Shown: positions 1-23,868, counted from the stretch's first letter. The stretch is DNA of 62,993 nt from Candidatus Omnitrophota bacterium (GCA_023247915.1 JAHFFN010000004.1:1-62993), one strand, 5' to 3'. Notes: generated by a model not told the origin, from the sequence alone. A program made the numbers and translations.

Positions 1-3000
1 TCTTTTGATGGCGCTTCAACTGACCTTTTGATCGGCGCCTATGATCATGGAAATAGCGGTCATCTGAATGCTTATCTGGATGATTTAAAAATTGTTAAAG
101 GTTCGACCGAAGCGCTCTCGCTTGATTTTGAAGCCAAGGACAGAGCATTTCATGAATTGATCAGCCCATATACATTCCGCGGAGAGGGCGGGCAGTTATC
201 TTACAATTCCGACGGCACTTTTTTAAGCGAAGCTTTAAATTCCCAAGGCACCCAATATTTTAAAGATTCTTCCGACGGGTCTCACCCGGTTTTTTTCTAC
301 GGCCAAACTCACGTGGACGCAGGAAAAGTAACTTTTGATGGTGATAAAGACAGGCTTTTTATTCCTTCCTCCGAAGATTTTAATTTTGGCACAAAAGATT
401 TCTCAATTGATCTGGATGTCAACTTCTCGGAATTAAAAAATACCGTTTTTATGGATCGCGGGAGCGCCTACGACTTTGAATTTATTTCCGGTTCACTAGT
501 TTGGAACGCTCTTGGAAGTCAGAGAAAGAGAGAATCTTGGAACCCGCGGACGAACACTTTTTACCATGTCACCTTAAAAAGAGAGGCCGGGCTTTTAAAA
601 ATTTTTGTCGATGGGCAAGAGCTGGGAAGATCTACGCCGGATTCTCTTAATTTAAACGTTAGCGCGGATATGAGCCTCGGTTCATTCACAAATAAAGAGA
701 GATCTTTTAACGGTCAGTGGGATAGCTTTAAGATCACGCGCGATGGGAAGGCGGTGCTTGATCTTAAATTTGATAATGAGATCCAGGAAACCATACACAA
801 AGCCCGGGAAGCGCTTACGGGGCGCATTGCTTGGCTTGAGAGTTTTCCGAGTAAAGAGTTGATCGAGCCTCAAAACCCATCTTATTCCGAATGGCTGTCC
901 ATCGCCACCGAATCTATCCTGACTTCGGATAGTATCGCCATTCAAGAATACTCCACTACCGGTATTATGGAAACTCAAACCAAAGCCGATCAGACTGTTA
1001 CGTTGTTTGATAACAAACAAACCGAGGCCGATGGCTCCGTGACAACTTTTGAGAAAAGCAAGCCTGTCAAGGTTGTGGATCAGAGTGGGAAAATTTTGAT
1101 CGGATACAGTTATGACGCCCACGGAAATCCTTCGCGCGTGTATCTTAAAAATGCGCGGGATACTTTGCCTGACCAATTCATTAAGGCGCGACAACAAGTT
1201 GCGGAGCGAAAAGCTGAGCAGCTTGATCTTTTGGCTCAGAAAAAAGACAAAGCTTATGAGGATTTCAAAGAGACGGTTGAGGGGAGAAGAAGCGGGCTTC
1301 TTGGCCAGCTTAGCGCACTAGAAGGCCAGAGAGGTGAAGTCTCCGGGATTAAGGCCAAGGGCAAAAAAGCGAAGTCTGAAAAAGGAGATGTTCTAAATCA
1401 GATCGATGAAGCGATAAGCCAAACCCGTCAAGCACTTACCAAGCTCGCCGAGCAAGAAGCACAGGCGGCAATTGATCTGGATAATTCAGTGAAGGATGTT
1501 TCGGATCAGATAGATACTGCTGCTAAGGACGCCTACACCGCTCTGAGCAATCAGGAAACCGCTCTCAAAAAAGAAATCCTTCGCCAAGAAGTTTCTCCAA
1601 TTGTTTATGACTACTACCGAAGAATCTTGGGGCGCGATCCGGCTTCGGCGGAATATGATTCCTGGATAGGGAAGGTTAATTATGATTCTGGGGCAGAGAC
1701 TCAAATCACGACCGGACAATCTTTGACGAAGGCTTTGAGTGATTATCTTGATGCTCTTCCGGAGTTAGAGGAACGTCGAAATTACGTCACCAACATTAAA
1801 CAAAAAGTCACAAATGAGATTAGCGGATATTTCTTAAAGTCAGATAACGATAAAAGAGCATTCATTCAAAACACTCTCGGTCTCTCAGACCCAGAGGATG
1901 GATCTATCCAGCTGACCCAAGCAGACGCCGATAAAATCTTGGCCTGGATGAATAGTAATCCTACGAATCTCCACTTCGGCCAGTCCGCCTTCTTATCTCT
2001 AGAAGCCTTGCTTGAAAAAAACGGAATTACTTTGAGCGGCGAACTCTCTAAAGAGTCCGGCGATGTGATTGACTCTCAACATCTACGCCACACCCGCGAA
2101 GAAATGGCTACTCTGGCCATTCTTGTCGATATCTTTACAGGTGTAATCTCTCCTTTAGACGACGGAGACCTTGTGATCTCTGTATTCTCTCTAAATAAGG
2201 TAGCAGCCCTCTACGGCGTTAACTTAAAAGGCGCCAAACTTAACTGGGAAGATCTGCAGGCAGTTTACAAAGCCAATCCTACAGCCAGGGTCATTGCCCA
2301 TATCAACGGCAATCACTACGTCATTGTCACTGCCATTACGAATGACTCCATCACCTATATTGACCCCGGTATCGGCAAAGACAAACAAAACGAATCTTTA
2401 ACCGTTAAGAAAGAAGGTTTCCTCAAGGCTTGGGATGGGAATGTCACCGCTGACTCCGTCATCCTGAGCGACGCGAAGCAACGCGAAGGATCCCACGTAA
2501 AAATTCTCACTACGCAAGAAGCTCAAAAAGTCCGCGGGGCTTTCTGGGGGAGTTTGTTAGGTCTATTGTCCTGGGTGTTTGTTTTTATCCCACCCTTATC
2601 CACGGTGCTGAGGATAGCTTCGATCGCAGTCAGTCTTATCGAAGGAGATTGGATCACGGCCATCACCTCCGCTGTCAATTTGAGTTTTCCGGGAGGTGGA
2701 ACGGTTGCAAACTCTCTTAAAGTTGGGCTCTCAAATGCTTTTCAAGGAGTTAGTGACGTCTTGGGTTCATTCGGGCAGGCATTAAATACGATAGGGAATG
2801 GACTAGCCAGCGTTTATCAATCAGTCACAGGATTTATTAACTCGGCGATTAATTTTCTTCCGGGAGTTAGTTCGGTTATCCAGGGCACGGCGCTAAAACT
2901 TTTGGGAGCTTCTGTGGGCGCTCTGGTTGTCAATTCTGCCATCTCCACAGGAATCACATACGGCGTCTCGCGTGGTTTAAATTCTTTGGGCGTCAGCCCC

Positions 3001-4959
3001 GAGATCACAGGCATCGTTAGTCAGCTCGCCGCCGGCGCCGCTATCCAAGCTTTGGAAAGAAGCACGCTGCCTCAATCAGACCAAGCCACCGCACAAGCCA
3101 ATAATATCCAAACAGGTATCGCCGGTTTCAGAGATATTGATAATGTCGGCCGTCTAGGCGCCGAGCTTGGAATAGACCCGCGTCTTACGGAGATCGCCGG
3201 GTTGTCTTTGGGGGCTATTCGCGGGCAACTCATCAATAATCCCAATCTTACAAGTTCTACCTTCTTTGATGCGTTTAAAGATATCAGAGGAAATCTAGCC
3301 GGCTCTCTTGCGCGATACGGAATCGATAAACTAGGGAGTTCTTTAGGGTTTCCAGCCCTTGGCTCTATCTTGGGAGCGCCCGTCTCAAATGCTTTTGCTT
3401 CGCAATTTAATTCCCAGACGAAGTATGCGGGAGAAGTGAAGCTTGAAGGTCAGTCCGAGATTGCAGTGGATGGTACAAGATATCGTGATGAAAGAACAGG
3501 TCAGATTATTTTAATTCCCACCCAAGAAAGAAGCTTTTGGGACAATACGATCTCATTCTTTAGAGATCACCTATCCGACATGATTAATATCGGTATCAAT
3601 GCTTATTATGCTTCCCAAGCAAAGCCCATTAAAATCAACCAACCAAATACACCTCCAATCACTGAAGCGCCTCTGCCGGACGGCGCCACTCCAGAAGTCT
3701 ATCAAGACATCATCGACGGAAAGATCAAATCTGGTTATCGGATTAGCTCTAGCGCCACCAACTACTCTGTCTATGATCGCCAAAGCAGAGCGCTTGTAAA
3801 GCGCGTCTCAGGGAACATCACCGAAGAAGGACGCTTTGAAAGCATGCTTGTTAAGAAAGCGGATGGGAGCATTGGGTATGAATATACCGATCTTTCGAAA
3901 GAAAATATTTATTATGAGCCGTCGTCAGGCGCCAAAGCCACTTTCAAGATTTCAGATGGTTCTGTGCAGGAGATCTATCTTGAGGGGAGTTCGCCGGAGA
4001 TTGTGCTAGAGCCAGGCTATAACATCGACGCCACAAATAAAGTGATCAATGGGACTATCAGATTCCCTGATTTGGGTGTTGTTGTAGATATTCTGGGTGG
4101 CAAAGTTTCAAAAGAGGGGCAGAGCGGCAGCTCGGTTAGCTCCAAAGATTTAATACAACCATTAGTGAACTATTATTTATTGCCAGGCATTGGTAATGAT
4201 GTCGCAGAGAATGAGCCGGTAAAGAGTGTTGAAGAATTCAAGAACAGACTGGTCTCCGATGAAAAGATAAATCCAGACCTGATACACCCGATTTCTTTAT
4301 TTGAAGCAGATCATGATTGGCTACATTTTTTTAGAGATATTGGCGAATGGAATGAGGACGCTTCAGGCGGAAACCAAGGGTTATCAGAAGAGGTGACGAG
4401 AAAGTTAAGGGCAGAGTATTCAAGAATGGGTCCTAATCAAAAAGTCGGCCAACAGATTGCGGTTACCTATTCAGGATCCACGAATCCCATGATCCGGGCT
4501 CTTTCAAGAACTGCCGAATTTGGTATTGAAACGCTGATATCATGGGGCGGTGTTGTTAAAAATCTACCCACAGCATTTCCTGCTGACTCAAAATTTAAAA
4601 CCTTTATTAACGTTTGGGGGTCGCTTGACGATGCACAAACACTGACCAATGTGGTAGGGGCGTCCGTAGGCTCCCAAAATATAGCGGCTTCAGGCGTAAA
4701 GACATTCAACATTAAAATTCTCGGCGCACACCACACAGACTTTTGGTATAGTGACGATAAGTGGAAGGGTAAGAACAGTCCTAAAAATCAAGAGATCAAC
4801 AGGAAGACGTCGATTTTCTTGCAGAAGTTGACAAAGGCGGCGGATAGTCCAAGCTCGTTACGAATATTTTTAGCTAAGAAAGGCATTGAAGGAAGTTTTG
4901 ATGATGACACGCTAACTGTTGATCTGGAACTATTTTTTAAGGAGAATGGACTAAATTGA
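1..4959 (+). CDS. Giant secreted multidomain protein, 5'-truncated by the window edge (LamG x2, coiled coil, DUF4214-like, C39-like papain-fold domain, Gly/Ser-rich hydrophobic region, C-terminal alpha/beta-hydrolase-like module)
   Basis: The frame of ORF 28..4959 stays open back to nt 1 (SFDGASTDLLIGAYDHGNSGHLNAYLDDLKIVKG = last strands of a LamG fold). Second LamG: FNFGTKDFSIDLDVNF..FYHVTLKREAGLLKIFVDGQELG..FNGQWDSFKI. DUF4214-like VYDYYRRILGRDPASAEYDSWIGKV. C39-like GQSAFLSLEALLEKNG..NGNHYVIVTAITNDSITYIDPG. Confidence 0.8.
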   Translation, partial: SFDGASTDLLIGAYDHGNSGHLNAYLDDLKIVKGSTEALSLDFEAKDRAFHELISPYTFRGEGGQLSYNSDGTFLSEALNSQGTQYFKDSSDGSHPVFFYGQTHVDAGKVTFDGDKDRLFIPSSEDFNFGTKDFSIDLDVNFSELKNTVFMDRGSAYDFEFISGSLVWNALGSQRKRESWNPRTNTFYHVTLKREAGLLKIFVDGQELGRSTPDSLNLNVSADMSLGSFTNKERSFNGQWDSFKITRDGKAVLDLKFDNEIQETIHKAREALTGRIAWLESFPSKELIEPQNPSYSEWLSIATESILTSDSIAIQEYSTTGIMETQTKADQTVTLFDNKQTEADGSVTTFEKSKPVKVVDQSGKILIGYSYDAHGNPSRVYLKNARDTLPDQFIKARQQVAERKAEQLDLLAQKKDKAYEDFKETVEGRRSGLLGQLSALEGQRGEVSGIKAKGKKAKSEKGDVLNQIDEAISQTRQALTKLAEQEAQAAIDLDNSVKDVSDQIDTAAKDAYTALSNQETALKKEILRQEVSPIVYDYYRRILGRDPASAEYDSWIGKVNYDSGAETQITTGQSLTKALSDYLDALPELEERRNYVTNIKQKVTNEISGYFLKSDNDKRAFIQNTLGLSDPEDGSIQLTQADADKILAWMNSNPTNLHFGQSAFLSLEALLEKNGITLSGELSKESGDVIDSQHLRHTREEMATLAILVDIFTGVISPLDDGDLVISVFSLNKVAALYGVNLKGAKLNWEDLQAVYKANPTARVIAHINGNHYVIVTAITNDSITYIDPGIGKDKQNESLTVKKEGFLKAWDGNVTADSVILSDAKQREGSHVKILTTQEAQKVRGAFWGSLLGLLSWVFVFIPPLSTVLRIASIAVSLIEGDWITAITSAVNLSFPGGGTVANSLKVGLSNAFQGVSDVLGSFGQALNTIGNGLASVYQSVTGFINSAINFLPGVSSVIQGTALKLLGASVGALVVNSAISTGITYGVSRGLNSLGVSPEITGIVSQLAAGAAIQALERSTLPQSDQATAQANNIQTGIAGFRDIDNVGRLGAELGIDPRLTEIAGLSLGAIRGQLINNPNLTSSTFFDAFKDIRGNLAGSLARYGIDKLGSSLGFPALGSILGAPVSNAFASQFNSQTKYAGEVKLEGQSEIAVDGTRYRDERTGQIILIPTQERSFWDNTISFFRDHLSDMINIGINAYYASQAKPIKINQPNTPPITEAPLPDGATPEVYQDIIDGKIKSGYRISSSATNYSVYDRQSRALVKRVSGNITEEGRFESMLVKKADGSIGYEYTDLSKENIYYEPSSGAKATFKISDGSVQEIYLEGSSPEIVLEPGYNIDATNKVINGTIRFPDLGVVVDILGGKVSKEGQSGSSVSSKDLIQPLVNYYLLPGIGNDVAENEPVKSVEEFKNRLVSDEKINPDLIHPISLFEADHDWLHFFRDIGEWNEDASGGNQGLSEEVTRKLRAEYSRMGPNQKVGQQIAVTYSGSTNPMIRALSRTAEFGIETLISWGGVVKNLPTAFPADSKFKTFINVWGSLDDAQTLTNVVGASVGSQNIAASGVKTFNIKILGAHHTDFWYSDDKWKGKNSPKNQEINRKTSIFLQKLTKAADSPSSLRIFLAKKGIEGSFDDDTLTVDLELFFKENGLN

Positions 4960-4960
4960 T

Positions 4961-5476
4961 ATGAAAAAAGAGACTTTTTTTTTAAATTTAGTGCTTTTAA
5001 CTGCTTTGCCCGGTTGTGTTTTTGCAGCAAACGATAAAAAATTAAACGAAACTACTACACAAGAAAGCCGTACCACTACTCATATTGTTGGCACAGATGA
5101 GGAAGCGTCAGCAGCATTTGCAAAAGGCTTGCGCGATGAAAGTTTTATTTGGGATAGAATTAATCGTGGTGCGCGATACTTTGATGCGGGTAGGTATGAG
5201 CAAGCTATCCCACAGTTTGAGGATGTTATGAAAGACGCCAAAGATGCCCCAGATATTTGGGTTATAAAGTCTTTTTTGGGTGAATGCTACGAGGCGGTTG
5301 GTCAGTATGAAAAATCGCTTGAATATATTAATTGGCAAATTGCTCAAGGTCCAAGGAAGCAGGTTGTTGACCAATTAGTGGCCAGAAAACAAAAGCTAGA
5401 GCAACTTTTAAACAAAGGCCATATAGATACCGTACCCCGTCCCAATCGCCAAAAAAGGGTCACGTTAGGCGAATAA
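4961..5476 (+). CDS. Small TPR-like lipoprotein
   Basis: ATG lies 1 nt after the upstream TGA. MKKETFFLNLVLLTALPGCVFA is a signal peptide with lipobox L-P-G-C. TPR-like helix pairs are present (GRYEQAIPQFEDVMK, GQYEKSLEYINWQIAQ). Confidence 0.7.
   Translation: MKKETFFLNLVLLTALPGCVFAANDKKLNETTTQESRTTTHIVGTDEEASAAFAKGLRDESFIWDRINRGARYFDAGRYEQAIPQFEDVMKDAKDAPDIWVIKSFLGECYEAVGQYEKSLEYINWQIAQGPRKQVVDQLVARKQKLEQLLNKGHIDTVPRPNRQKRVTLGE
5427..5446 (+). repeat. Left 20-bp inverted repeat of the transposase unit (inside the 3' end of the TPR lipoprotein CDS)
   Basis: ATACCGTACCCCGTCCCAAT, read directly. Extends to 23/24 matches with its partner toward the transposase. Confidence 0.9.
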
Positions 5477-5546
5477 AATTTAGATATTTTTGAAAGGATT
5501 TTGAGGGTCTTGACGTCTTGTATGGTAAAGGGAGGAACCCATTGCC

Positions 5547-6125
5547 ATGCCAAGAAAACCAAGGATACAAAGCCCTACAGATATTTATCACTTCATTAAT
5601 CGGGGAGTTAACAAAAAGAAGCTATTTCATCATGACAGGGACTATCAGTATTATCTTGAGCTACTCAAAGAATACTCCACTAGATTCTCCATCCAGATCC
5701 ATCATTATTGTCTCATGAATAATCATACCCACCTTTTGATTAAAGCGGACGGCATAGGTCTTGTTAGCCGATTTGGCCATTTTGTTCAACGTCGATATGC
5801 CTACTATTACTGCAAGACTTACCGTTGGTCCGAACAAGTCTTTCGGAAGCGTTTTATCAGTATTCCTATTCAAGAGGATGCCTATCTTCTGGAATGTGGC
5901 CGCTACATTGAACGAAACCCGCTAAAAGCTAAACTTGTGCAAGATCCTCAAGATTATCCCTATTCCAGCTATTCTTTCTATAGTCACCAGAAAGAAGACC
6001 TGCTTATCACCCCAAACCCTTTATACGAAACAATGGGCAGGAACCCTTTAGAGAGAACCGCTGCTTATAAATTTTACGTGGGCTACACAAGAGAACAAGA
6101 AAAGGAGTTAGCGGCTCCTTTCTAA
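5547..6125 (+). CDS. IS200-like / REP-associated (RayT-type) HUH Y1 tyrosine transposase
   Basis: AGGGAGG RBS about 11 nt upstream. N-terminal PRKPRIQSPTDIYHFINRGVNKKKLF, HUH motif in YCLMNNHTHLLIK, and catalytic Tyr context GRYIERNPLKAKL. This is the COG1943 / PF01797 pattern as I remember it. Confidence 0.85.
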   Translation: MPRKPRIQSPTDIYHFINRGVNKKKLFHHDRDYQYYLELLKEYSTRFSIQIHHYCLMNNHTHLLIKADGIGLVSRFGHFVQRRYAYYYCKTYRWSEQVFRKRFISIPIQEDAYLLECGRYIERNPLKAKLVQDPQDYPYSSYSFYSHQKEDLLITPNPLYETMGRNPLERTAAYKFYVGYTREQEKELAAPF

Positions 6126-6143
6126 CGTGCCTCCAAAGAGGCA

Positions 6144-6163
6144 ATTGGGACGGGGTACGGTAT
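6144..6163 (-). repeat. Right 20-bp inverted repeat of the transposase unit
   Basis: ATTGGGACGGGGTACGGTAT is the exact reverse complement of 5427-5446. It overlaps the first ATG (6162) of the next ORF. Confidence 0.9.
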
Positions 6164-6212
6164 GTTAATTTACGAAAGGTATACAACAATTTTAGCAAAG
6201 GCAAAAATCCCA

Positions 6213-6869
6213 ATGAATAAGAAGAGCTTTCCCTTGGTTTTAACTATAACTCTAATAGCAGCGATTTCATTTATTCTAAAACCAGGAATCGAAGACCTGT
6301 GGACACGATTTCAAGATTTTACACACCCCAGATACTCTCAGATGCTTGAGAAGGCTTGGGCTGAGAAGTCGACTGATTTTTTAATTGATAAATTAAATCA
6401 TCCAAGTATTAAATACAGTGGGGTAGCAATGGCCTTGCTTGCCCAAAGACACGATGAAGTCAAGATTGGAAGAATATTAAAAATTATTACTCAAAAAGGC
6501 AATCCGCGTGGAAGGGAATTTGCTCTAAGTGTACTGTTTTCTTGGGACGAGAAGAAAGCATCTGAAGTGTCGATGGAGATCGTGCGGATAGGATCAAACC
6601 ACCCGCTTTATCGAGATGCCATGCTACATTTAGCCCATATAAAATATGGCCCGGCTTTTCCTTACCTTGTTGAAATGGCAAATTTACCTGACGGACCTAA
6701 AAATGGTTCTGCCCACATGTTAAAAGACTTTGGAAGATTGGAAGCTATTCCTATCCTTGAAAATATGCTCAAGAATATTAAAAGCGAAGATCCTGTTGTG
6801 CGGGATTTTCTTGGAGATGCAATTCTAGATGCTATTCAATCTATTAAAGAAAATAATGGAATAAACTAA
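6213..6869 (+). CDS. Membrane-anchored HEAT-like helical-repeat protein (hypothetical)
   Basis: ORF 6162..6869. Internal ATG 6213 gives the MNKKSFPLVLTITLIAAISFIL anchor. The rest looks like alpha-helical repeats (AMALLAQRHDEVKIGRIL, REFALSVLFSWDEKKASEV, LEAIPILENMLKN). Start is uncertain (6162 or 6213). Confidence 0.5.
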   Translation: MNKKSFPLVLTITLIAAISFILKPGIEDLWTRFQDFTHPRYSQMLEKAWAEKSTDFLIDKLNHPSIKYSGVAMALLAQRHDEVKIGRILKIITQKGNPRGREFALSVLFSWDEKKASEVSMEIVRIGSNHPLYRDAMLHLAHIKYGPAFPYLVEMANLPDGPKNGSAHMLKDFGRLEAIPILENMLKNIKSEDPVVRDFLGDAILDAIQSIKENNGIN

Positions 6870-6974
6870 CATAGTAAACTCCAGGGACACACAACATAAT
6901 TCAAAACTATGGCTAGAATCGCTCGGATCGTTATACCCAATTGCTATTTTATGTTTCAAGAACTGATTCCTCGC

Positions 6975-7808
6975 ATGTTAAAAAGGCATAGACGCGTTAT
7001 TTTATTTTCAATATTCTTATGCGCGTGTGCGCAGACTACAGCCAACGCCCATGTCTTGGATCAGTACGAAATAAAAGACCGCATGCAAAATGTGCGGACG
7101 ATTTATATGCTGAAACCTCAGATTATTTTGGGGCGGCGTGATGAAAAGCATGGATTGTTTACCGGTGATGAGCCAGGCAAGAAGATGGCTCAACGGGCAA
7201 TTTTGAATGCGGCTACCGATGCATTTGTTCAACAAGGTTATGGATTCACATCAGTATCTGAGGATGACGCGAACACCTTATCTCCGACTGATTATCAGCA
7301 GGAGTTTCAGGCTGTTTGGCAGCATCTTGACCAGTTCGCCGACGCAGGTAGAGAGAAAAAACCAAAGCTTTGGCCTTTCTCGATTGCGCCTGATCAACAA
7401 AGCCTTGTTCGTAGCCAGGAGGTTGATGCGATTGCTTTTGTGCAATGTTACGGAAAATTTGACAGTGTGGTTACTGCTGATGCGGAAGTACCCGGAAAAG
7501 TTATTTTTACGGTTGCACAATTAGCTTTGACCGGAGCAGCATTGATATTTTCTGCGGACTACGCTTCCTTGGAATTCAAGCTATCCGTTATTGACTCAAG
7601 GACAGGGGAGCTTATTTTTTATCGTGAGTCCTCTGAAGATCAAACGGACGTGAGGGATAGCGCTCGTTTAACTGGCACCTTCACAGAAGCTTTTAAATGG
7701 TACTTACCCAAAGCGTTGAATCCTGCGCCTTTGGTAAAGTTTAAACACAAACGATCAGAGATAGCCGCTCAGGGGGTTAACGGAGGTTCAAGTGCATCAA
7801 CATCCTAA
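6975..7808 (+). CDS. Hypothetical lipoprotein
   Basis: ORF 6909..7808. ATG 6975 gives MLKRHRRVILFSIFLCACAQ (basic n-region, lipobox L-C-A-C). No catalytic motif recognised. Confidence 0.55.
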   Translation: MLKRHRRVILFSIFLCACAQTTANAHVLDQYEIKDRMQNVRTIYMLKPQIILGRRDEKHGLFTGDEPGKKMAQRAILNAATDAFVQQGYGFTSVSEDDANTLSPTDYQQEFQAVWQHLDQFADAGREKKPKLWPFSIAPDQQSLVRSQEVDAIAFVQCYGKFDSVVTADAEVPGKVIFTVAQLALTGAALIFSADYASLEFKLSVIDSRTGELIFYRESSEDQTDVRDSARLTGTFTEAFKWYLPKALNPAPLVKFKHKRSEIAAQGVNGGSSASTS

Positions 7809-8355
7809 TACACAAAGATTCTTTTTGATGGGCATGGTTTTGGTTGTGTGCTTAAGCGGTTGCGCAACAACGCCCAATATTGGTTATAAAGTGGAGCCAA
7901 TCCACCAAGCTTCTAAAAATGTAGAAGTAAAAGTCAGTCCTTTCACGGATAGTCGCATTGGACGCGAGCAGGCTATTATCGGAGGGCTTTATAACGGATA
8001 TGGTATGCGCGTGGGAGATATTCATGAGCCGGCTGGTTTAGTGAAATCTTTGGAGAATGCTTTTAAAGAAGAATTAGCCAATAGTGGCTATTCGCTAATT
8101 GATGAAACTCGCGATATCGTTATCCAGGGGTCAGTAGAGGCTATTTCCTGTGAAGTTCGAAACGGACAAAATTCTACATTTCTAGTGCGTTTTAAAGTGA
8201 CTGACAAATCCCAAGAAGTGATCAATAAGGTTTATCAGGGTAAAAAATTAATCTGGATGACTTTTGACTCAACCGGAAGTGACGCGATCAACGCCGCGAT
8301 GAAAGAACTCATCAAAAATTTTATTAAAGATTTGGATGAGTACATTAAGAGTTAA
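7792..8355 (+). CDS. Hypothetical lipoprotein
   Basis: GTG start overlaps the upstream gene end by 17 nt. QRFFLMGMVLVVCLSGCATT carries lipobox L-S-G-C. Mixed alpha/beta body with no enzyme motif. Confidence 0.6.
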   Translation: MHQHPNTQRFFLMGMVLVVCLSGCATTPNIGYKVEPIHQASKNVEVKVSPFTDSRIGREQAIIGGLYNGYGMRVGDIHEPAGLVKSLENAFKEELANSGYSLIDETRDIVIQGSVEAISCEVRNGQNSTFLVRFKVTDKSQEVINKVYQGKKLIWMTFDSTGSDAINAAMKELIKNFIKDLDEYIKS

Positions 8356-8426
8356 TGCGCCGAACCAAGCGGTTGGTGAGGGCAAGTTTATGCGGTATCA
8401 ACGATGTCATAACAAAGGAGGTCGTA

Positions 8427-8981
8427 GTGAGATTTTCAAAATTAACCGGTGGTTTTTGTGTTTTGTTTCTGAGCTTTGCCGTTAGCGGTTGCGCGACGAT
8501 TGTATCGGGAACAACTCAAAAGATCAGCGTGACATCGCAGCCATCGGAAGCTATCGCCAAGGTGGATAACAATACATCCTCCAAAACGCCTGCGTCGTTT
8601 ACCTTGGATAGGAAAAATGATCACACGATTGAGATCGCAAAAGACGGTTACAAAACCGCGACAGTTTTGATCAAGAGATCGCTGAACGGAATGGCGTTTG
8701 GCAATGTTTTGATTGGCGGAATCATCGGTGGTGGTGTTGATATGGTTTCGGGCGCAAATAATAAATTGATTCCCGAGCGCGTCGACGTCGTTTTGGAAGA
8801 GGGAACAGGTTATTCGGATGTGCCCAAATTCGCTTCCGCCAAGGACGCTGAATTTTACGAGAAAAACGTGCTTAAGCCGAGCCAAAAAGCGCCGGAAAAA
8901 ACAACCCCAGCTCCGATGGCCGCAAACACGGTTCAGCCCCAAACCGGAACTAATTTTTCACCCGCAACAAAAACAGTTTAA
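8427..8981 (+). CDS. PEGA-domain lipoprotein
   Basis: AGGAGG at 8416-8421, then GTG 8427. FCVLFLSFAVSGCATIVSG is the lipobox. PEGA-type segment ISVTSQPSEAIAKVDNN..PASFTLDRKNDHTIEIAKDGYKT. Gly-rich helix GNVLIGGIIGGGVDMVSG. Confidence 0.75.
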   Translation: MRFSKLTGGFCVLFLSFAVSGCATIVSGTTQKISVTSQPSEAIAKVDNNTSSKTPASFTLDRKNDHTIEIAKDGYKTATVLIKRSLNGMAFGNVLIGGIIGGGVDMVSGANNKLIPERVDVVLEEGTGYSDVPKFASAKDAEFYEKNVLKPSQKAPEKTTPAPMAANTVQPQTGTNFSPATKTV

Positions 8982-9009
8982 CGTAGATGCCTCGCGCCAA
9001 ATCACAAGT

Positions 9010-10014
9010 TTGGCGCGAGGCGCTCTAATAGCTTACTTCCGCTTAAATTTGCTTAGCCCGCGTGACGTCGTCCGGTATACGGTTGGAGTTGTCGCGTTAT
9101 TTCTATTTTTGGAAATAACCGTCCGGCTGTATGGCTTTGGGTTGGATGGGTTAAATTATAAAAAAATGAATAGCCTGTATCCTCCAGGCACCCTTATTTT
9201 GCAGGGCTCTAAAAACCATAAAATCTATACCGAATTAAAACCTAACCTAAATATTTATTACCGGTTTAATCCATTTAAAACAAATTCCAGGGGGCTTCGA
9301 GACAAGGAATATTCTCTAGAAAAACCAGCTGGTGTGTTTAGATTTGCCGTCCTTGGCAGTTCGCCAACGATGGGAGAGGGGATCGAGGCGGAAAAAACTT
9401 TTCATTCTGTTTTAGAAGATCGTTTGAATCGAGAGTCAAAGAAAATCGCTTACGAATTTATCAATTTTGCTGTCGATGGCTACCGAATCTCTAATTCTCT
9501 CGAGGTTTTAAAGAAAAAAGTTCCCCTGTATCACCCCGACGCCGTGTTGTTTTGTGTGTCTAATGAGTACTGCTGGTTTCCGAGCCGGTGTCCGAAAGAA
9601 GCCTACAAAGAGCCCGTGATGAAGCGGCCTTTTTTTCAAAGTCATTTATGGTTTCTTGTGACAAGAAAAAGCAGGGTTCAGGCGGTGGTCAGCCCAAATA
9701 AAAAAGCATATTTTGGCGTGGTAGACTCAAACATGAGAGAGCTTGCTCTTATCGGAAAAAGGCAGGGAATACCCGTCTATGTCATTGTTCAGGCTTATAA
9801 TCCCTATGACGCCGAAACGATTAAAAAAATCGCCAATAGCCATGACTTGGACGCGGTAACAATGAACAGCGGTTTCAGAGAAAAAAAACTTAGCGCCTAT
9901 TTTATCAGCCCTCTAGACCCCCACTCCAACGCGGAAGCAAATGAAATTTACGCCAAGATTGTCTATGATTTTTTGATGAATCGGCATCTTTTGGAGAAAA
10001 GCCATTCACAATAA
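9010..10014 (+). CDS. Membrane-anchored SGNH/GDSL-fold protein, paralog a (block I degenerate: G-S-S)
   Basis: ORF 8818..10014 overlaps the PEGA gene by 164 nt. The first plausible start beyond it is TTG 9010, ahead of TM helix VGVVALFLFLEITVRLYGF. NSRGLRDKEY, then FRFAVLGSSPTMGEG (block I), INFAVDGY, PLDPHSNAEANEIYA (block V-like). Confidence 0.6.
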   Translation: MARGALIAYFRLNLLSPRDVVRYTVGVVALFLFLEITVRLYGFGLDGLNYKKMNSLYPPGTLILQGSKNHKIYTELKPNLNIYYRFNPFKTNSRGLRDKEYSLEKPAGVFRFAVLGSSPTMGEGIEAEKTFHSVLEDRLNRESKKIAYEFINFAVDGYRISNSLEVLKKKVPLYHPDAVLFCVSNEYCWFPSRCPKEAYKEPVMKRPFFQSHLWFLVTRKSRVQAVVSPNKKAYFGVVDSNMRELALIGKRQGIPVYVIVQAYNPYDAETIKKIANSHDLDAVTMNSGFREKKLSAYFISPLDPHSNAEANEIYAKIVYDFLMNRHLLEKSHSQ

Positions 10015-10030
10015 ATACTTCAGACTGGTT

Positions 10031-10960
10031 TTGTCATTTGTAACCGCGTCGATTTTTTTCTTTGCGGCAGGGGAGGTTTTTGCGCGTCTTTATTCTTTAA
10101 ATCATAGGGTGTATGACATTGAGATGCTTCACTACGCTAATCGTCTTAAAGTGGAGTATCCAGACTCGACGGTTGGTCACTTTCATAAGCCCAACGCAAC
10201 GGCAAAATTAATGGGGGTAACCCTCGCGACTAACTCTGACGGGTTTAGAGATAAGGAATATCCTCTTTCAAAGAGCCAAGCTAGACGTTTGATTTTTCTG
10301 GGAGATTCGTTGACCTTGGGCTGGGGAGTCGAAGAAAAAGACACTTTCTCAACTCTTTTGGAAAATAAATTAAACCAGTTTAGTCCTACAGAAATTATTA
10401 ATTTCGGCGTTGGCAATTACAATACCGAGCAGGAAGTTCATTTGTTTCTCGATAAGGGTCTTCAGTATCATCCGGACGAGGTTGTTGTCTTTTATTTTAT
10501 CAATGACGCGGAGGAGGCCAAACCGGAAAATTTTAAAAATATTTTCAGGCATTCGGATCTGGCCGCTTTTTATTGGTCGGCGGTGACGCGTTTATCCAAC
10601 CGGCTTCGCTACGAGGCGTATTATCATGGGCTTTATCGGGAGGGGGATCGGAAGGGGTGGGCGCGGACGCAGGAGGCATTTTTACTGCTAAAACAGCGCT
10701 GTGTGGAAAATGGAATCGGACTTCGGGTGGTTTTACTGCCGGAATTGCATCGATTAAGGGATTACCCGTTTAAAACTGAGCATCAACTGGTGAAGGATTT
10801 TTTAGAGAAAAACCATGTCGCTTGTTTGGATCTGGCGCCATTTTTTTATGAAAAGGAACTTGCCTCTAAATTGTGGGTTGCCAAGGATGACGCACATCCT
10901 AATGCGGTGGCGCACCGCCTCATTGCCGCCGCTTGTGAGAAATTTGTGTCGTATGATTAA
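10031..10960 (+). CDS. Membrane-anchored SGNH/GDSL hydrolase-fold protein, paralog b
   Basis: TM anchor FVTASIFFFAAGEVFARLY. NSDGFRDKEY. Block I LIFLGDSLTLGWG, NFGVGNYNT, block V DDAHPNAVAHRLIA. Non-ATG start (TTG 10031 or CTG 10025). Confidence 0.8.
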   Translation: MSFVTASIFFFAAGEVFARLYSLNHRVYDIEMLHYANRLKVEYPDSTVGHFHKPNATAKLMGVTLATNSDGFRDKEYPLSKSQARRLIFLGDSLTLGWGVEEKDTFSTLLENKLNQFSPTEIINFGVGNYNTEQEVHLFLDKGLQYHPDEVVVFYFINDAEEAKPENFKNIFRHSDLAAFYWSAVTRLSNRLRYEAYYHGLYREGDRKGWARTQEAFLLLKQRCVENGIGLRVVLLPELHRLRDYPFKTEHQLVKDFLEKNHVACLDLAPFFYEKELASKLWVAKDDAHPNAVAHRLIAAACEKFVSYD

Positions 10961-12016: not shown

Positions 12017-12046
12017 TTTGACAAAAAGTCAAAGTTGGCTTGTAAA
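12017..12046 (+). promoter_or_regulatory. Candidate promoter/operator of the giant S8 gene
   Basis: Palindrome TTTGAC-AAAAA-GTCAAA (12017-12033) contains TTGACA (12018-12023). TGTAAA lies 17 nt downstream (12041-12046). ATG is at 12107. Confidence 0.3.
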
Positions 12047-12106
12047 CAGCCTCTGCGTCAAGTATCCTTTAAGGATAAAATTAACGGCGAAGCACTTAAA
12101 ATCAGA

Positions 12107-15100
12107 ATGAAAAAAATCTTAGCGGCTCTTCTGACGGTCACGACTTGCCTCAGTTTTTCCACCTGGGGAGTGGCTAGTCCTACCTTAAAGGGCAGTACCG
12201 TTTCTTTCTATCCTGTCATCGCCGGATATGAGCGCTTTTTTAGAGAAACTAAAGAGAGATTTGAACAGCTTCATAATCCTCGCTCAGAAAATCTTCAGAG
12301 CGTCGCGACTAGCGCAAGTTTAAAAAAGGCTTATTCTCAAACCAAGACCGCGCCCAGCGCTTCTAGCCATACCCAAGAGATTCAAATCATTCAGTTGGAT
12401 CGGCAAGAAGCATCCAATCTTTCCCGTTCCATAAAAGTAGATACTCCGACTCAAACCAGAATTTCTTCCGACTTTATCAATAACGTTGTTACCACGCCCG
12501 TATTATTTTCTAGTATCCAAATTCAGCGTATTTTTTATTCGCTGACAGATTCAATTAATATTATGCAGCTGGCACCGAATGACACCTATTACTCTGCTCA
12601 ATGGGCGCTTGCGGCTTTGAATATGGAGTCTGCCTGGGATTTTACTCGCGGCGCGGGAATCACGGTCGCTGTGATCGATAGCGGCATTCAATACACGCAT
12701 GAAGATATCGCGGCCAATATTTGGTCTAATCCCGGTGAGATCGCGGGAAATGGGCTTGATGACGATCATAATGGCTACGTGGATGACATTCGTGGCTGGA
12801 ATTTTAGAAGCAATAATTCCGATATCAGCGACACGGATGGACACGGGACGGCGACCGCGGGAACGATCGGGGCGGTTAACAATAATAACAAGGGAATATC
12901 AGGCGTAGCGCCAGGCGTCAAGATCATGGGGCTTCGAGCATTCAACGCGAATGACACATTTAATGATTTGTACACGGTGGTTGAAGCCATGATCAGCTCG
13001 GTGCGCTATGCCGTGGATATGGGCGCTCGCGTGATCAGCATCTCTCTAGGCTTTATCTCCGATTTTTTTGCGGGAAACCAACTGACCCGCTTTCAAGACT
13101 CTATTTCTTACGCGAGATCCAGGGGAGCGATTGTGGTGGCGGCCGGTGGTAACGGAGGCCAGGCCATGGATCTTTATCCCGCATTGTTCAACGACACCAT
13201 TGCGGTCGGCGCGCTCTACAAATCGCCTCTCGACGGCAGCATTCTTCGTGACAGTTATTCCAATTATGGAAATGATCTTGATTTTATGGCGCCCGGAACA
13301 AATATTCTCGTGCTTCGCATGGCCGGAAGCGATTATGCCTATTACAATGGAAACTCAAATTACACCCAGCAAAGCGGCACTTCATTTGCAACGCCGATCG
13401 TGGCCGGCGCCGCGGCTCTACTGCTGGCTCAAAATCCCCTGCAGACTTTTGATGACATTTATCGCCGTCTTAAATTTTCTTCTACGGATAAAGGGGCGTC
13501 GGGATTTGATACTGAAAACGGATGGGGGATGATCAATCCTTTTAAAGCGCTTTCGGAAGATTATTATAGCAATGGAAATATCAAAACACGTTTTTTAAGC
13601 GCGGCGGATTTTTACGGCATCATTCGCAAAGACTATGACACCGGCGGAAATCTGAGCAATCAGTATGACGCCTCCGGCAATCGAGGGGTTTTTGATTATT
13701 ATCCAGGCACCGGAAAAGTTCAGCGCGTCACTTTTTATAATCCGCAAAACGTGGTTCTGCTGACCAACGAATATTATGCCGATGGTGTTTCTATTTATCG
13801 CCGGCTTTATCCGGATGGGCATATCTTGGAATACGCTTTGGCTGGATGGCTTCAAAAGGAAAATTTTTCCAATGGGGACATTCGCTGGTATTTTGTAAGC
13901 GGCAATAATCAAAAATTTAGCGAATTACTTAGCGGAAAAATTTATGAATACCTTGATGAAAATTTCTACGGAAATGACGCTCAAGGGCATGGACGGGGTC
14001 GCAAGACTAAGGAGGTGACAACGGCTAATCTTGAATTTCGTTACACCGAATACTGGCCTGGCACTGACAAAGTAAAAACCAAAGAGATTTATCAAGGCGG
14101 TGTTCTTCAAAAAACTCAACGCTTTGCTTCCAACGGAACGACTTTGATTAGCGAAACTTCGCCCTCCGGTCTTGAGACTCGTTTTATCGAGTACTGGCCA
14201 GGCACCGACAAAATCAAAAAAACAGAAATTTATCAGTCCGGAAGCCTTCAAAAAACTCTGGGATACTACTTGGATGGCAATCTTCAGAGCTCCTTAAGCG
14301 CTTCCAGCGGTACTCTCGAAGAGTATCTGGATGAAAATTATTACCCAACCAGCACCATCGATTTTTCAGTCGTTAAAGACAGCTCCACCGCCAATCACGC
14401 TCTGACTCTCTCAGGAGACACCAAAATTGATCTGACAAATCAAAGAGTTGGAAGCGCGAATTCACTGCCTATTCGTTTGGATGGCAACACGGACTATATC
14501 CAAGCGAGTGACAGCCCCGACTGGGACTTTGGTACCGGTAACTTTACTTGGGAAACTTGGATCAAATTTTCTTCGACCAGCGGAGACATTGAATTATTTA
14601 GCCGTTCGGATAACGAATGGTCTCTGCAAAAAACAAATGGGGGAACTCTTCGGCTGCAATTAGGCGGGCCTGTTGTGAAGACAGAGCCATGGTCTCCGCA
14701 GACGGGAGTCTGGTACCATCTGGCCATCGAAAGGTCTTCCGGAAGTATTTATTTTTATGTGAATGGATCCGCGCTGGGGTCAGGTTCGCCTAGCAATGCC
14801 AGTATCAGCGGTTCAGATCCTATTCAAATCGGAGCCACCCACACTGGTGCGCGTTCTTTGAATGGATGGGTTGATGGATTTCGCGTCTCTACGGGTGTTG
14901 CTCGTTACACCGGAAACTTTACGCCTCCGATCGATCTGATCGCGGATGCGCAAAGCAGTTTAGCGCTGGCGCCCGCAATCGTCCCCACAAGCGCCGCACA
15001 AGGTCGAAAAACTCGCGAGCTTTTCCCTGATGGGCATGAATTTCGTTATCTCGAATATTGGACTGGCACCGACAAAGTAAAGACTAAGGAAATTTATCAG

Positions 15101-18100
15101 AACGGCGTTTTACAAAAGACGCAAAACCTGGCCGCGGACGGCGTGACGGTGATTTCAGAAGCGCTTCCCAGTGTTTATACCTATTTTCCTTCCGGCAATC
15201 GTAAGAGTCTTTACGATGGAGTGACACACACTACTTCGTATTATTTGGATGAAAACTTTTATGGGAATGATGGGCAAGGGCATGGGCGAGGCCGCAAGAG
15301 CAGGGAAGTAGCGGATACCGGACTTGAAATGCGCTACACCGAATATTGGACGGGTACCGATAAAGTCAAAACCAAAGAAATTTATCAAGGTGGCATTCTC
15401 CAGAAAACCCAAAGCTTCCTCTCGGATGGGGTGACCCTGTCTAGCGAAACCAATCTTTTTGGTGATCACTACGAGTTTTTCACCACCGGCAATCGTAAGA
15501 GTTTTTATGAAGCAGCTAGCCATGTCACTTATGAGTATTACGATGAAAATTTTTATGGCAACGATGCCGATGGTCACGGCCGTGGTCGCGTCTTGCAGGT
15601 GACGCAGCCGAACGGGGGAACTCTGCAATACAACGATTATTGGCCCGGCACGGACAAAGTAAAGCAAGCGACTTTAGCGCCCAACACGCCTGACGCTCAT
15701 CACTATGAGTACTATTTTACGGGCAATGAATTTCGTCATACGCCACCTTCAGGTGAAATCACGGAGCGATTGGACGAGAATTTTTATGGCAATGATTCCA
15801 TGGGCCATGGGCGAGGCAGAGCCAGCAAAGTAATTGGAACAGATGGTTTTGAAGATCGCTATATTGATTATTGGACTGGCACTGATAAAGCCAAAACGAT
15901 GGAGCTTTATTATTACGGAACGTTAGTTGCGACTATTGAGTACTACTCCGATGGTGTGAACGTTTCCAAAGAGACTCGTCCCGACGGCGCTGTGTATGAA
16001 ATTTATCAAAGCGGTAATTTGAAGAGCTCAACTAATTTGCTGGGTTATAGAGAATATTTAGATGAGTCTTTTTATGGTCCTTCTGAGTTTGGCTATCCTA
16101 TGGGGCGCATTTCTCGTCAAATTTTGGGTGGCGTAGAGTATCGCTACACCGAATACTGGCCAGGCACCGACAAAATCAAAACCAAAGAAATTTATCAGAA
16201 TGGCGTCCTTCAAAAAACTCAAAGATTTGCTTCGGATGGAACGACCTTGATCAGTGAAACTTCGCCGTCCGGTATCGAAACTCGTTTCATCGAGTATTGG
16301 CCGGGAACAACGACGCTAAAAAAAGTGGAGCTTTATCAAGCCGGTGTTTTTCAAAAGGCTTTGGAGTATTTCTCGGACGGCATTCAGATCTCCAAAGAAA
16401 CTCTGCCCAATGGCAATGTCACTGGGTATTATTTGTCGGGTCGCACGCAAAGCTTTTTGGATAGTTCTGCGGGTACGCTCACGGAATATCGTGATGAAGA
16501 TTATTACAGCGTTGGCACGACAGATCCCACGACGATCGAAGATGGTTCCAGCGCCGGTCATAGCTTGACGATCGCGGGGAATGCGCAAATTGATCTGACA
16601 AATAAGAGAGCCGCCAGCACCAATTCCATGCCTATTCGCTTAGATGGCAGTGGGGATTATGTTCAAGTCAATGATAGCCCCGACTGGGACTTTGGCACGG
16701 GTGACTTTACTTGGGAAACTTGGATCCAGTTTTCGTCCACCACCGGAGATATTGAACTGTTCAGCCGCTCTGACGCCGAATGGTCTTTGCAAAAAACACT
16801 TTCAGGGAATCTTAGACTTCAGCTAAATGATCGTGTCGTGAAATCCGAAGCGTGGTCGCCGGTAGCCGGAACTTGGTATCACGTGGCGGTAGAACGCTCT
16901 TCCGGAAATCTCTATTTTTATGTGAATGGAAATGTGCTGGGGACAGGCACTGCCGACAGCACCAATATCATTGGTTCTAATCCTATCCAAGTGGGCGCCA
17001 CGCATACCGGTGCGCGATCCCTCAACGGTTGGGTTGATGGATTTCGTGTTTCCAAGGGCGTTGCCCGTTACACGGGTAATTTTACCCCTCCGGCTGATCT
17101 TGTCGCAGATGGACAGAGCAATTTATCGCTAGCGCCCGTACTTGTGCCCGCAGGCCCCAGTCAGGGTCGCAAAACTCGTGAACTTTTATCCGATGGCTCT
17201 GAAAATCGTTACGTCGAATATTGGTCTGACACCGACACGGTGAAAACCAAAGAAATTTATCAGAACAGCGTGCTTCTAAAAACGGAGAGCTACGCTATCG
17301 GCGGGGCTATTCTCGCTACCACTTATTATGTGTATGCGGGAGATTCGATCCAAGCGATGATTGACCGGGCGGTTGCCGGAGATACAATTGTTGTTGGTTC
17401 CGGAACTTATCACGAGCATTTGATCCTAAAAGAGGGCGTGTCCTTAAAAGGACAGGACGCCAAGACGACGATTATTACCGGAGACAGCGCGGTTCAGACG
17501 CATGTGATTGTGGCGCGGGGGAATAACACGATTGAAAATCTTACGGTGACCGGCGGCGGAGCTTACAGTGGCTCGGCTTCAAGCGCGATCCGAGTCGAAG
17601 GCAATGAGGTCGTGATCCGAGGAAATCGTATCACCGACAATCAAGACTACGGCGTCCAGGTATGGTTCACGTCGGATCATGTCACCATCGAGCATAATTT
17701 ATTTTTAAATAACAAAGAAATTGGTATTCAGTTGCCGCAAAATCAAACGACGATTCAGAATAATACATTGGTTCACAACGGCATCGGCATCAATATTCTC
17801 GGCGGCGCGGCACCGACGATTGATAATAATGTGATTACTGACAGTACTTTTCAGGCAATTTATGAATACGCGGTGGCGCAGAACCCGACGGACGGTTACG
17901 CGCATGTTTCCAACAATACTTTCTTTAACAACGCCGAAAAAGGCGGTTATTACTCAAAGGGCGTTCCGCCGGCGGTGGCGAATCAAACGGATGGCAACCA
18001 AATTGCTGACCCGCATTTTGTGGATCCCACGCATGGAGATTATTCGCAACAATCCGTTTCTTCCGCCGCGGCGACTTCCGCTGTGGTTCTTAGCGCCGAG

Positions 18101-19780: not shown

Positions 19781-20534
19781 CCCGATGAAATTTTCAATTA
19801 TCGTTCCTATTTTTAACGAGGAGAGAACCGTCGTCATTTTATTTGAGGCGATCCAAAAGACAATGGATCGACTTGATAAAAACTATGAAGTTATTTTTGT
19901 GAATGACGCTTCCACGGATCATAGCTGGGACTTGATGAGGCATTTGGCTGAAACCTCGCCGAAATTTGTGGCGGTGGATTTGGCCGGGCATCTAGGGAAG
20001 TCAGCCGCGATGCAGGCGGGGTTTGACGAGGCGCGCGGAGAATTTATTATCACGATGGACGGAGATTTACAGAATGATCCGGCGGATATTCCGAAACTCT
20101 TTGATAAATTACGGGAGGGTTATGATGTGGTTTGCGGCTGGCGACGCGTGCGATCGGACACCTATAAAAAGAAAATAGCATCTCTGGTGGCCGGCTCTTT
20201 CAGAAAAATGATCACCGGAGAGTCTCTTCATGATGTGGGCTGTCCTTTTAGGATTTTTAAACGCTCCGCCTTGGAACATGTCTATCTATCGGGCGGTTTG
20301 CACCGCCTTTTTGCGTTGATCATGAAAAAATCAGGCCGGCATATCGTCGAGGTGGAAGTCCGCGACCATCCGCGCTTATTCGGAAGGACGAAATTTAAAG
20401 ACAGAGCCAGGATTGTTGAGGGAGTCCGGGATTTGCTGAGGCTGTCTTTTTTTGATATTCAAAAGCTGATGAAGCGAAATTCCGATATTCTGATCAAGAG
20501 GATTTTAAAATCCGCCCCTTCAAATAATCTCTGA
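19767..20534 (+). CDS. GT2 polyprenyl-phosphate glycosyltransferase (ArnC/GtrB/DPM1-like), module A
   Basis: FSIIVPIFNEERTV, VIFVNDASTDHS, ITMDGDLQNDPADIPKL, CGWRRVRSD, PRLFGRTKFK. Start overlaps the GT-C gene end by 14 nt. No C-terminal TM helices. Confidence 0.85.
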   Translation: MTKSSPMKFSIIVPIFNEERTVVILFEAIQKTMDRLDKNYEVIFVNDASTDHSWDLMRHLAETSPKFVAVDLAGHLGKSAAMQAGFDEARGEFIITMDGDLQNDPADIPKLFDKLREGYDVVCGWRRVRSDTYKKKIASLVAGSFRKMITGESLHDVGCPFRIFKRSALEHVYLSGGLHRLFALIMKKSGRHIVEVEVRDHPRLFGRTKFKDRARIVEGVRDLLRLSFFDIQKLMKRNSDILIKRILKSAPSNNL

Positions 20535-21642: not shown

Positions 21643-21643
21643 A

Positions 21644-22198: not shown

Positions 22199-22274
22199 AT
22201 AAGAATAGTCTAATCTATTTTTGAGGAATAATCAAATGTCGGGAGGCTTGACATGGGGTGTGAATTGAGTAAAA

Positions 22275-23864: not shown

Positions 23865-23868
23865 AAAG

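Follow-up and report, generated by a model that had tools for sequence, protein, structure and literature searches.

The window analysed here is a 62,993-nucleotide stretch of DNA from a Candidatus Omnitrophota bacterium (GCA_023247915.1, JAHFFN010000004.1:1-62993). Its first 5476 nucleotides hold, on the plus strand, an open reading frame (ORF) with 1652 visible amino acids (aa) at 1..4959, followed by a gene for a 171-aa exported tetratricopeptide repeat (TPR) protein at 4961..5476. Judged from the sequence comparisons below, the locus probably encodes a toxin and its immunity protein, from an Omnitrophota-specific family of polymorphic toxins. Most likely, the ORF represents the C-terminal 1652 residues of a Sec-exported polymorphic toxin of several thousand residues. 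Members of the Omnitrophota are widespread, uncultured and ultra-small, and are thought to depend on, or to be predators of, other cells. They contain many very long genes that are largely unexplained.

The proteins of the family consist of three parts. The variable N-terminal part is presumably for binding and contains LamG domains in the window, and YD/RHS, FG-GAP or TcdB_midN repeats in relatives. The next part is a central cassette, conserved throughout, in which a coiled coil, a DUF4214-like motif, a C39-like domain and a Gly-rich hydrophobic region succeed one another. An exchangeable C-terminal part, the proposed toxin, follows after a fixed recombination breakpoint at residue ~1140. 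In the window this toxin is a predicted hydrolase, and a lipid or an ester in the envelope of the target cell would be its substrate. The TPR protein would bind and block the hydrolase module in the periplasm of the producer or a sibling, thereby conferring immunity.

The family was delineated by scanning one genome per species with the conserved DUF4214-C39 stretch as probe. A total of 67 family loci were found, and all metagenome-assembled genomes (MAGs) and single amplified genomes (SAGs) with a phylum name belong to Candidatus Omnitrophota/Omnitrophica. The remaining bins are labelled uncultured Planctomycetia or uncultured bacterium. A Leptospira origin of the window, suspected from weak NCBIfam matches, was rejected because all 67 loci lie in Omnitrophota-type MAGs. 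The family ORFs are about 2000-4700 aa in length, and several genomes contain two or more copies. A word-indexed protein search returned five matches only. The long proteins P0001 and P0002 share residues ~265-1138 with the window protein at 38-49% identity (38-64% across the alignments of the core at 265-1140), and both have a TPR gene directly downstream.

The C-terminal types were tallied over 43 intact loci. BLAST matches between the window protein and the intact relatives nearly all end at residues 1124-1141. Past this breakpoint, 26 intact loci carry the window-type C-terminus and 17 carry others, which fall into at least 13 unrelated types. The truncated ORFs of L003, L009, L023, L033 and L040 were considered as extra types and excluded, as they stop or shift frame 147-747 residues past the C39 motif. 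For L009, L023 and L033 at least, the next ORF continues the protein. Frameshifts, assembly errors or real pseudogenes could account for the five interruptions. L049 and L068 have one C-terminal type and one downstream gene type in common, and L009 and L023, both truncated ORFs, likewise match each other in both.

The C-terminus is inherited independently of the core. Mapped onto a neighbour-joining tree of the core (40 tips), the C-terminal type requires 13 Fitch changes. Shuffled labels give a mean of 11.8, so that the core tree does not predict which C-terminal type is present. L002 has the intact core nearest to that of the window (61% identity) but a different C-terminus, and cores with 30-35% identity share the window module. 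A clean natural case of C-terminal exchange in the family is given by the tandem paralogues L032 and L039, located ~9 kb apart on ASOC01000009.1 of a Ca. Omnitrophus fodinae SAG. The two proteins are 94% identical over 954 aa, identity then drops to ~20% exactly at the family breakpoint, and their downstream genes differ.

Domains of known toxins and immunity proteins are found among the alternative modules. Searches of the 17 alternative C-termini against Pfam gave three credible toxin-related matches, one weak match below threshold (taken as spurious) and no match for the other 13. In L030 the C-terminus is Ntox10 (E 2.6e-24), and the gene directly behind it is Imm27 (E 5.9e-14). Zhang et al. 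2012 (PMC3482391) give Imm27 as the main immunity partner for Ntox10. The alternative C-terminus of L024 matches the pre-toxin domain PT-TG, and that of L028 matches Peptidase_C92, a permuted papain-like amidase.

Orphan cassettes are also present. L024 contains a 789-aa orphan ORF that opens with a ~230-residue copy of the core end, 61% identical to its own main gene, and then continues into a window-type hydrolase module. One further orphan cassette each occurs in L024 and L015, with a homology arm seen in L024. Neither a second family copy nor an orphan toxin cassette was found in the window. The breakpoint, the C-terminal swapping, the toxin and immunity domains and the orphan cassettes are the defining properties of polymorphic toxins, and the family is assigned to this class on their account. 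A polymorphic-toxin-like architecture had been proposed for the window in an earlier sequence-only reading. This is borne out by the conserved core, the sharp breakpoint and the many C-terminal modules, each with its own downstream gene.

These properties also bear on whether the ORF could encode an ordinary large surface or S-layer-like protein, with an esterase for maintenance of its own envelope and the TPR gene as a mere conserved neighbour. A housekeeping domain is not expected to give way to at least 13 unrelated modules, including Ntox10, at a single breakpoint, to differ between 94%-identical tandem paralogues, or to leave orphan cassettes. Such an origin is therefore very improbable, although it would suit the envelope-related genes nearby (SGNH/GDSL esterases, glycosyltransferases, a PEGA protein and a subtilase-LamG protein). 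It would also suit L001, where homologues of two window genes (6909..7808 and 7792..8355) follow the TPR gene.

The variable region of the window protein begins with a stretch of ~235 aa (residues 1141-1384; 3421..4152, plus strand) without a Pfam match. It is beta-rich, contains YD-like segments and forms a linker or pre-toxin stretch; relatives with other C-termini lose homology at ~1140. The C-terminal toxin module itself comprises residues ~1385-1652 (4153..4959, plus strand) and has a predicted minimal alpha/beta-hydrolase fold. With ~270 aa it is larger than the ~150 residues first supposed, when the beta-rich stretch before it went unmentioned. The three hydrolase landmarks named at that time are present: LLPGIGND at 1393, VTYSGSTNP at 1488 and ILGAHHTDFW at 1573. 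The candidate nucleophile Ser1491 (nt 4471-4473) is in the Y-S-G motif, and His1578 (nt 4732-4734) is in the GAHHxD motif.

An exhaustive HMMER search with residues 1364-1652 yielded 50 cluster representatives, in every one of which the match is located at the extreme C-terminus. Many of the carriers are giant proteins with C39, RHS, FG-GAP or TcdB_midN domains. Ser1491, Gly1492 and His1578 are invariant in 31/31 aligned sequences, while Pro1496 and Trp1450 are each invariant in all sequences but one, or wherever aligned. Asp1580 (30/31), Asn1537, Gly1540 and Asn1570 are near-invariant.

The AlphaFold2 (AF2) model of the module, built from a 20-sequence alignment, has a predicted local distance difference test (pLDDT) score of 89.1 and a predicted template modelling (pTM) score of 0.87. 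Ser1491 is placed at the turn between a strand (121-127 in the model) and a helix (128-140), the position of the nucleophile elbow, and His1578 lies past the last core strand (204-210). When the PDB was searched with this model by Foldseek, 42 matches had E<=1e-3, and each of the top 20 is an alpha/beta hydrolase. The top matches are lidless and include Bacillus lipase A (LipA), cutinases/PETases, feruloyl esterases and dienelactone hydrolase. The lack of a hydrolase fold or of catalytic residues would have refuted the sequence-only reading, and with the confident model, its alpha/beta-hydrolase matches and the invariant Ser and His the reading withstands this check.

Catalysis is argued from the Ser, His and neighbouring Asp being invariant or nearly so across 31 divergent sequences. 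The module is probably an active representative of an unannotated family of Ser-His hydrolases, and from the modelled fold it is most likely a carboxylic-ester hydrolase, with an esterase, lipase or cutinase-like activity as the best guess. An esterase directed specifically at lipids has somewhat less than an even chance. The earlier proposal of a lipase/esterase therefore stands as far as the hydrolase fold is concerned, and lipase is just one among several possible esterase activities.

The gene downstream of the toxin (4961..5476, plus strand) encodes the candidate cognate immunity protein. The toxin stop codon TGA (4957-4959) is separated by a single nucleotide from the ATG at 4961, as had been noted from the start, and an AAGGAG sequence lies 14 nt upstream of the ATG. 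Given this spacing, the TPR gene may be translationally coupled to the toxin. The protein matches TPR_19 (E 3.3e-6), and a TPR_2 match is present in 18/25 TPR partners of the family.

The N-terminus of the window TPR protein is signal-like. A possible lipobox (LPGC at 16-19) has an atypical Pro at -2, and a signal peptidase I (SPase I) site between VFA and A is equally possible. All 25 TPR partners have a hydrophobic or signal-like N-terminus, and a lipobox-like Cys is seen in two, those of the window and L004 (the latter by eye, as the lipobox pattern matched the window only). The sequence prediction that the TPR partner is exported is thus solid, whereas its description as a lipoprotein, made in the earlier reading, is uncertain.

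Partner types were defined by clustering the first downstream ORFs of the loci. The cluster of the window type is present in 24 of the 26 loci with the window-type module and in none of the 17 with other C-termini. The two exceptions are L034, with a TPR-like but diverged partner, and L050, with a doubtful ORF call. Similarity between partners follows similarity between modules (r=0.79; Mantel p<=0.0005) rather than between cores (r=0.21). The partial correlation of module and TPR given the core is 0.79, and that of core and TPR given the module is -0.09. It follows from this co-occurrence and co-divergence that the TPR gene belongs to the module and not to the carrier, in agreement with the co-conservation expected earlier of a cognate partner.

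TPR proteins are common chaperones and adaptors. A chaperone, adaptor or export helper dedicated to the module would likewise be expected to co-vary with it, in which case the ORF could be an effector or adhesin that a predatory or epibiotic cell directs at its prey or host. The N-terminal LamG and YD repeats suggest surface binding, and papers have proposed that Omnitrophota are host-dependent or predatory, with large proteins tied to attack on the prey cell wall. A chaperone role is, however, at odds with the recognised immunity pairing of a family relative, in which the gene in the same position is Imm27 behind Ntox10. Orphan immunity-like genes pile up downstream, as is typical of immunity genes and not of chaperones, and the partner is predicted to be exported, as expected for protection from an envelope-acting esterase. 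The effector and immunity readings are also non-exclusive, as a prey-directed toxin still needs self-protection. An effector with a TPR chaperone is thus unlikely, and the best reading of the TPR gene, taken together with the Imm27 precedent, is that of an immunity gene.

Several points weigh against the assignment of the locus as a toxin/immunity pair. The N-terminus and signal peptide of the window protein itself are located beyond the window and all contigs. The Foldseek E-values of the module are modest (4e-5), with TM scores of ~0.4-0.6. The elbow motif is T-Y-S-G-S in the window and [YH]-S-G-x in the family, instead of G-x-S-x-G. The latter is common but not universal in the alpha/beta-hydrolase superfamily. 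A candidate for the catalytic acid, Asp1543, is in the canonical place past strand 171-177 of the model and is present in only 13/20 aligned sequences. The other candidate, Asp1580 of the H-x-D motif, is in an unusual place and is present in 30/31. The acid is likely to be one of these two. The module falls outside the families of Pfam and NCBIfam, and no relation to the known Tox-ABhydrolase or Tle families was detectable. Finally, the co-variation of module and TPR gene could result from co-transfer of the cassette without physical binding. PDB sequence searches with the whole protein and with a profile of the module alignment also gave no match for the C-terminal module.

The N-terminal part of the protein is incomplete. 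The ORF is open at the 5′ end of the window, without a start codon within it. Residues 1-~40 resemble the tail of a LamG domain, and 1..105 (plus strand) is a C-terminal remnant of a LamG-like domain cut by the start of the window and contig. A Laminin_G_3 (concanavalin-like) domain follows in the variable N-terminal region at residues 121-245 (361..735, plus strand; Pfam E 1.5e-7) and is probably a binding domain. The LamG repeats of relatives align onto window residues 9-247. All three public contigs with this locus break at window nt 1, inside the LamG-repeat part. As they start at the same point, an assembly break caused by the repeated domains is suggested. In many of the 5′-complete relatives a Sec-type signal peptide is seen, and a conserved DVRQM(L/I)LDAK motif often comes next.

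The conserved family core comprises residues 265-1140 (793..3420, plus strand), as defined by homology to relatives and the end of the BLAST matches. It contains, in order, a terminal YD-like repeat, a coiled coil, a DUF4214-like motif, a C39-like domain and the Gly-rich hydrophobic region. The domain order given in the sequence-only reading stands for LamG, C39 and the hydrophobic region, with the coiled coil plausible and DUF4214 below threshold. The coiled-coil candidate (residues 385-530) has one Pro, is helix-prone and rich in A/K/E/L/Q/D, and is interrupted by a central Gly/Lys-rich linker. Its crude heptad score is 0.68, compared with 0.54 in a control region, and from these features a coiled coil is plausible. 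The DUF4214 match at residues 535-562 is weak (Pfam E 0.061), and the motif is kept in relatives.

The C39-like papain-fold domain comprises residues ~640-820 (1918..2460, plus strand). Residues 727-815 match Peptidase_C39 (PF03412) with an E-value of 3.7e-9 and 36.9 bits (cut-off 22), over profile positions 46-125 only. H658, S662, D710, S727 and H772 are invariant in 17 diverse family sequences, and the first two belong to the invariant motif LHFGQSAF at 657-664. No Cys is conserved in the domain among the 17 members. In a manual alignment, Ser662 is placed at the position of the catalytic Cys. There is a ~45-aa insertion after the first helix of the domain.

The nearest known counterpart is the C39 domain of bacteriocin ABC exporters such as PCAT1, with which the family domain shares the Pfam Peptidase_C39 match and the His and D-P-G motifs. 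His772 and the D-P-G motif align with the PCAT1 peptidase domain, and the Asp of IDPG varies across loci. In contrast to PCAT1, the family domain is unfused to an ABC transporter, has a Ser in LHFGQSAF at the inferred position of the Cys and contains the ~45-aa insertion. It is internal to a giant exoprotein and is not the N-terminal domain of an ABC exporter. No ABC transporter was found among the scanned ORFs of the window, most window ORFs being outside that scan. The C39-like domain of HlyB is inactive, and the family domain likewise has no conserved Cys. The domain may therefore be a Ser-His variant or may be non-catalytic like that of HlyB. The releasing peptidase of the sequence-only reading stands in its Peptidase_C39 profile match. 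Self-processing is unproven, given the lack of a conserved Cys, and a role of the domain in processing would be conceivable.

The core ends with a Gly/Ser/Ala/Leu-rich, poorly charged region at residues 845-1140 (2533..3420, plus strand), defined by composition and hydropathy. At ~295 aa it is longer than the ~250 residues initially estimated. It contains 13% G, 12% L, 12% S and 11% A, with 9.5% charged residues, and has TM-like peaks at 852-870 and 959-985, indicating at least two segments. In an AF2 model of the C39-like domain and hydrophobic region together, the hydrophobic region is all-helical; the pLDDT is 44, which makes the model unreliable. Anchoring, insertion into the membrane or translocation may be the function of this region.

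The hydrophobic region does not vary within the family, extends to the breakpoint and supplies the homology arm of orphan cassettes. Its conservation in all members, together with the non-canonical elbow motif, could be taken to mean that it is a pore-forming toxic part and that the module is a catalytically dead alpha/beta-fold binding domain. This is extremely improbable, as the Ser, His and neighbouring Asp are invariant or nearly so in 31 divergent sequences, and as the immunity genes vary with the C-terminus whereas the hydrophobic region does not. The latter contrast argues that toxic specificity lies in the C-terminus.

Downstream of the TPR gene is an IS200/RAYT-like Y1 (HUH) transposase gene (5547..6125, plus strand; Pfam Y1_Tnp E 7e-11, above the cut-off) within an element at 5427..6163. 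The protein scores 59.7 bits with NCBIfam REP_Tyr_transpos, below the cut-off of 80, and contains the H-T-H-L-L and RYIERNP motifs. The element is bounded by perfect 20-nt inverted repeats (5427-5446 and 6144-6163) that occur nowhere else in the window. The left repeat is in the 3′ end of the TPR gene, the tail of which outruns its homologues, and the right repeat overlaps the ATG of the ORF at 6162..6869.

Similar elements are associated with other family loci. A Y1 gene is found on the same strand, 400-2100 bp past the toxin stop, in 14 of the 41 loci with enough flanking sequence and across C-terminal types (the window, L002, L015, L019, L024, L028, L029, L030, L032, L033, L036, L037, L052 and L068). 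None was found in 113 kb of upstream flanks, nor a second copy in the 63-kb window. In L024 and L015, Y1 genes are located 58-94 bp upstream of orphan cassettes. Exact flanking inverted repeats of 14-27 nt are present in 8 of 17 Y1 copies. The inverted-repeat sequence of the window has no exact match in other loci; the repeats there differ in sequence, and several share an ACCGGAC..GTCC theme. The Y1 elements may take part in cassette exchange or may merely favour such loci.

The ORF at 6162..6869 (plus strand) encodes a 235-aa protein with weak HEAT repeats. It is 40% identical over 235 aa (E 1e-45) to the product of L039 13677-14366. It resembles an orphan immunity gene because this homologue adjoins the L039 toxin, which has a different C-terminus. 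The following ORFs at 6909..7808 (299 aa) and 7792..8355 (187 aa, a possible lipoprotein) have no family match, and their homologues occur in the same order directly past the TPR gene of L001 (L001 9513-10822). These could be accessory or further immunity genes. A PEGA-domain protein is encoded at 8355-8981, and is 47% identical to L038 15682-16077, located downstream of a toxin with another C-terminal type.

Further downstream, two SGNH/GDSL-esterase-like ORFs are present at 8818-10960 (weak matches to NCBIfam LA_2490 and LA_2486), and a long run of glycosyltransferase and PMT_2 genes occupies 18281-25623. An envelope-glycan region is suggested by this sequence of genes. The ORF at 12035-18223 encodes 2062 aa with Peptidase_S8 (subtilase), two Laminin_G_3 domains and a right-handed beta-helix/NosD region. 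The product, probably a protease that is secreted or located at the surface, is outside the toxin family.

Polymorphic toxins of other phyla are known to include alpha/beta-hydrolase toxin domains as well as C39-like domains (PMC3482391). Among the known systems, the Sec-dependent Rhs/YD-repeat toxins (WapA; the ‘T2SS/Sec’ class, PMC3482391) share with the family large exported proteins, with YD/RHS repeats in its relatives. The swappable C-terminus past a fixed boundary, the adjacent immunity gene, the orphan cassettes with homology arms, and the Ntox10/Imm27 and PT-TG domains of family members are further common features. The family differs in that no Rhs core or DPxGL-type boundary was seen beside the toxin, in having a central cassette of its own, and in being found only in Omnitrophota-type MAGs.

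Similar to CdiA/CdiI, the family has a giant exoprotein, a sharp switch from conserved to variable sequence and an adjacent immunity gene, as well as downstream orphan C-terminal/immunity modules in which part of the conserved sequence is retained. Unlike CdiA, the protein has no two-partner secretion (TPS) domain or filamentous haemagglutinin (FHA) repeats by Pfam, the boundary motif is not VENN, and the central cassette is another. No CdiB partner was noticed among the few neighbour genes examined, and the flanks were not screened for one.

An alpha/beta-hydrolase toxin with a Ser-His(-Asp) centre is shared with the Tle/Tli pairs of type VI secretion systems (T6SSs) as well as with Tox-ABhydrolase-1/2/3 (PMC3482391). 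The Tle/Tli pairs also have an adjacent gene for an exported immunity protein, as at the window locus. Tli proteins include some with Sel1/TPR-like repeats and some that are lipoproteins. The module of the window differs from Tle and Tox-ABhydrolase by its [YH]-S-G elbow and by having no match to DUF2235, Lipase_3 or any Pfam family. Furthermore, no parts of a T6SS were found, and the carrier is a giant protein with predicted Sec export.

Long Omnitrophota proteins with C39 domains have been described previously (West-Roberts et al. 2023 preprint; 2026 preprint, ‘24-protein PF03412 group’). The toxin family shares with these the phylum, the very long ORFs, the C39 domain and the TM-like segments; its members, at 2-4.7 thousand residues, are shorter than the giant proteins of >30 thousand residues. 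Neither preprint mentions polymorphic toxins, immunity genes or C-terminal exchange, and no paper linking Omnitrophota to polymorphic toxins was found in a literature search. The principle is known. It takes new forms in the toxin family and its central cassette, in the hydrolase domain, in the TPR proteins as an immunity family and in the association with transposases.

A more far-reaching reading, doubtful but with some chance of being correct, is that of a new phylum-specific class of toxins. Both processing of the protein and passage of the toxin into or through the target membrane would be the work of the Ser-type C39-like domain and the ~300-residue Gly-rich helical region, without a type 5, 6 or 7 (T5, T6, T7) machine. 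Cassette exchange would be driven or seeded by the Y1 transposases, which are flanked by inverted repeats and lie exactly between the immunity genes and the orphan cassettes.

For the Omnitrophota, the ‘C39 group’ of very long genes gains a concrete and testable function. The function offered is that of polymorphic toxins with cognate immunity. Their warheads are many and can be exchanged, orphan cassettes accompany them, and a genome may hold several paralogues. An alpha/beta-hydrolase toxin domain that had no annotation before and a family of TPR immunity proteins are added to this repertoire, and the regular Y1 transposase at the cassette junction is a lead on how the loci diversify. E. coli can serve for tests of the toxin/immunity pairs, with no need to culture the source organism, and the conserved central cassette could be a new device for delivery or processing.

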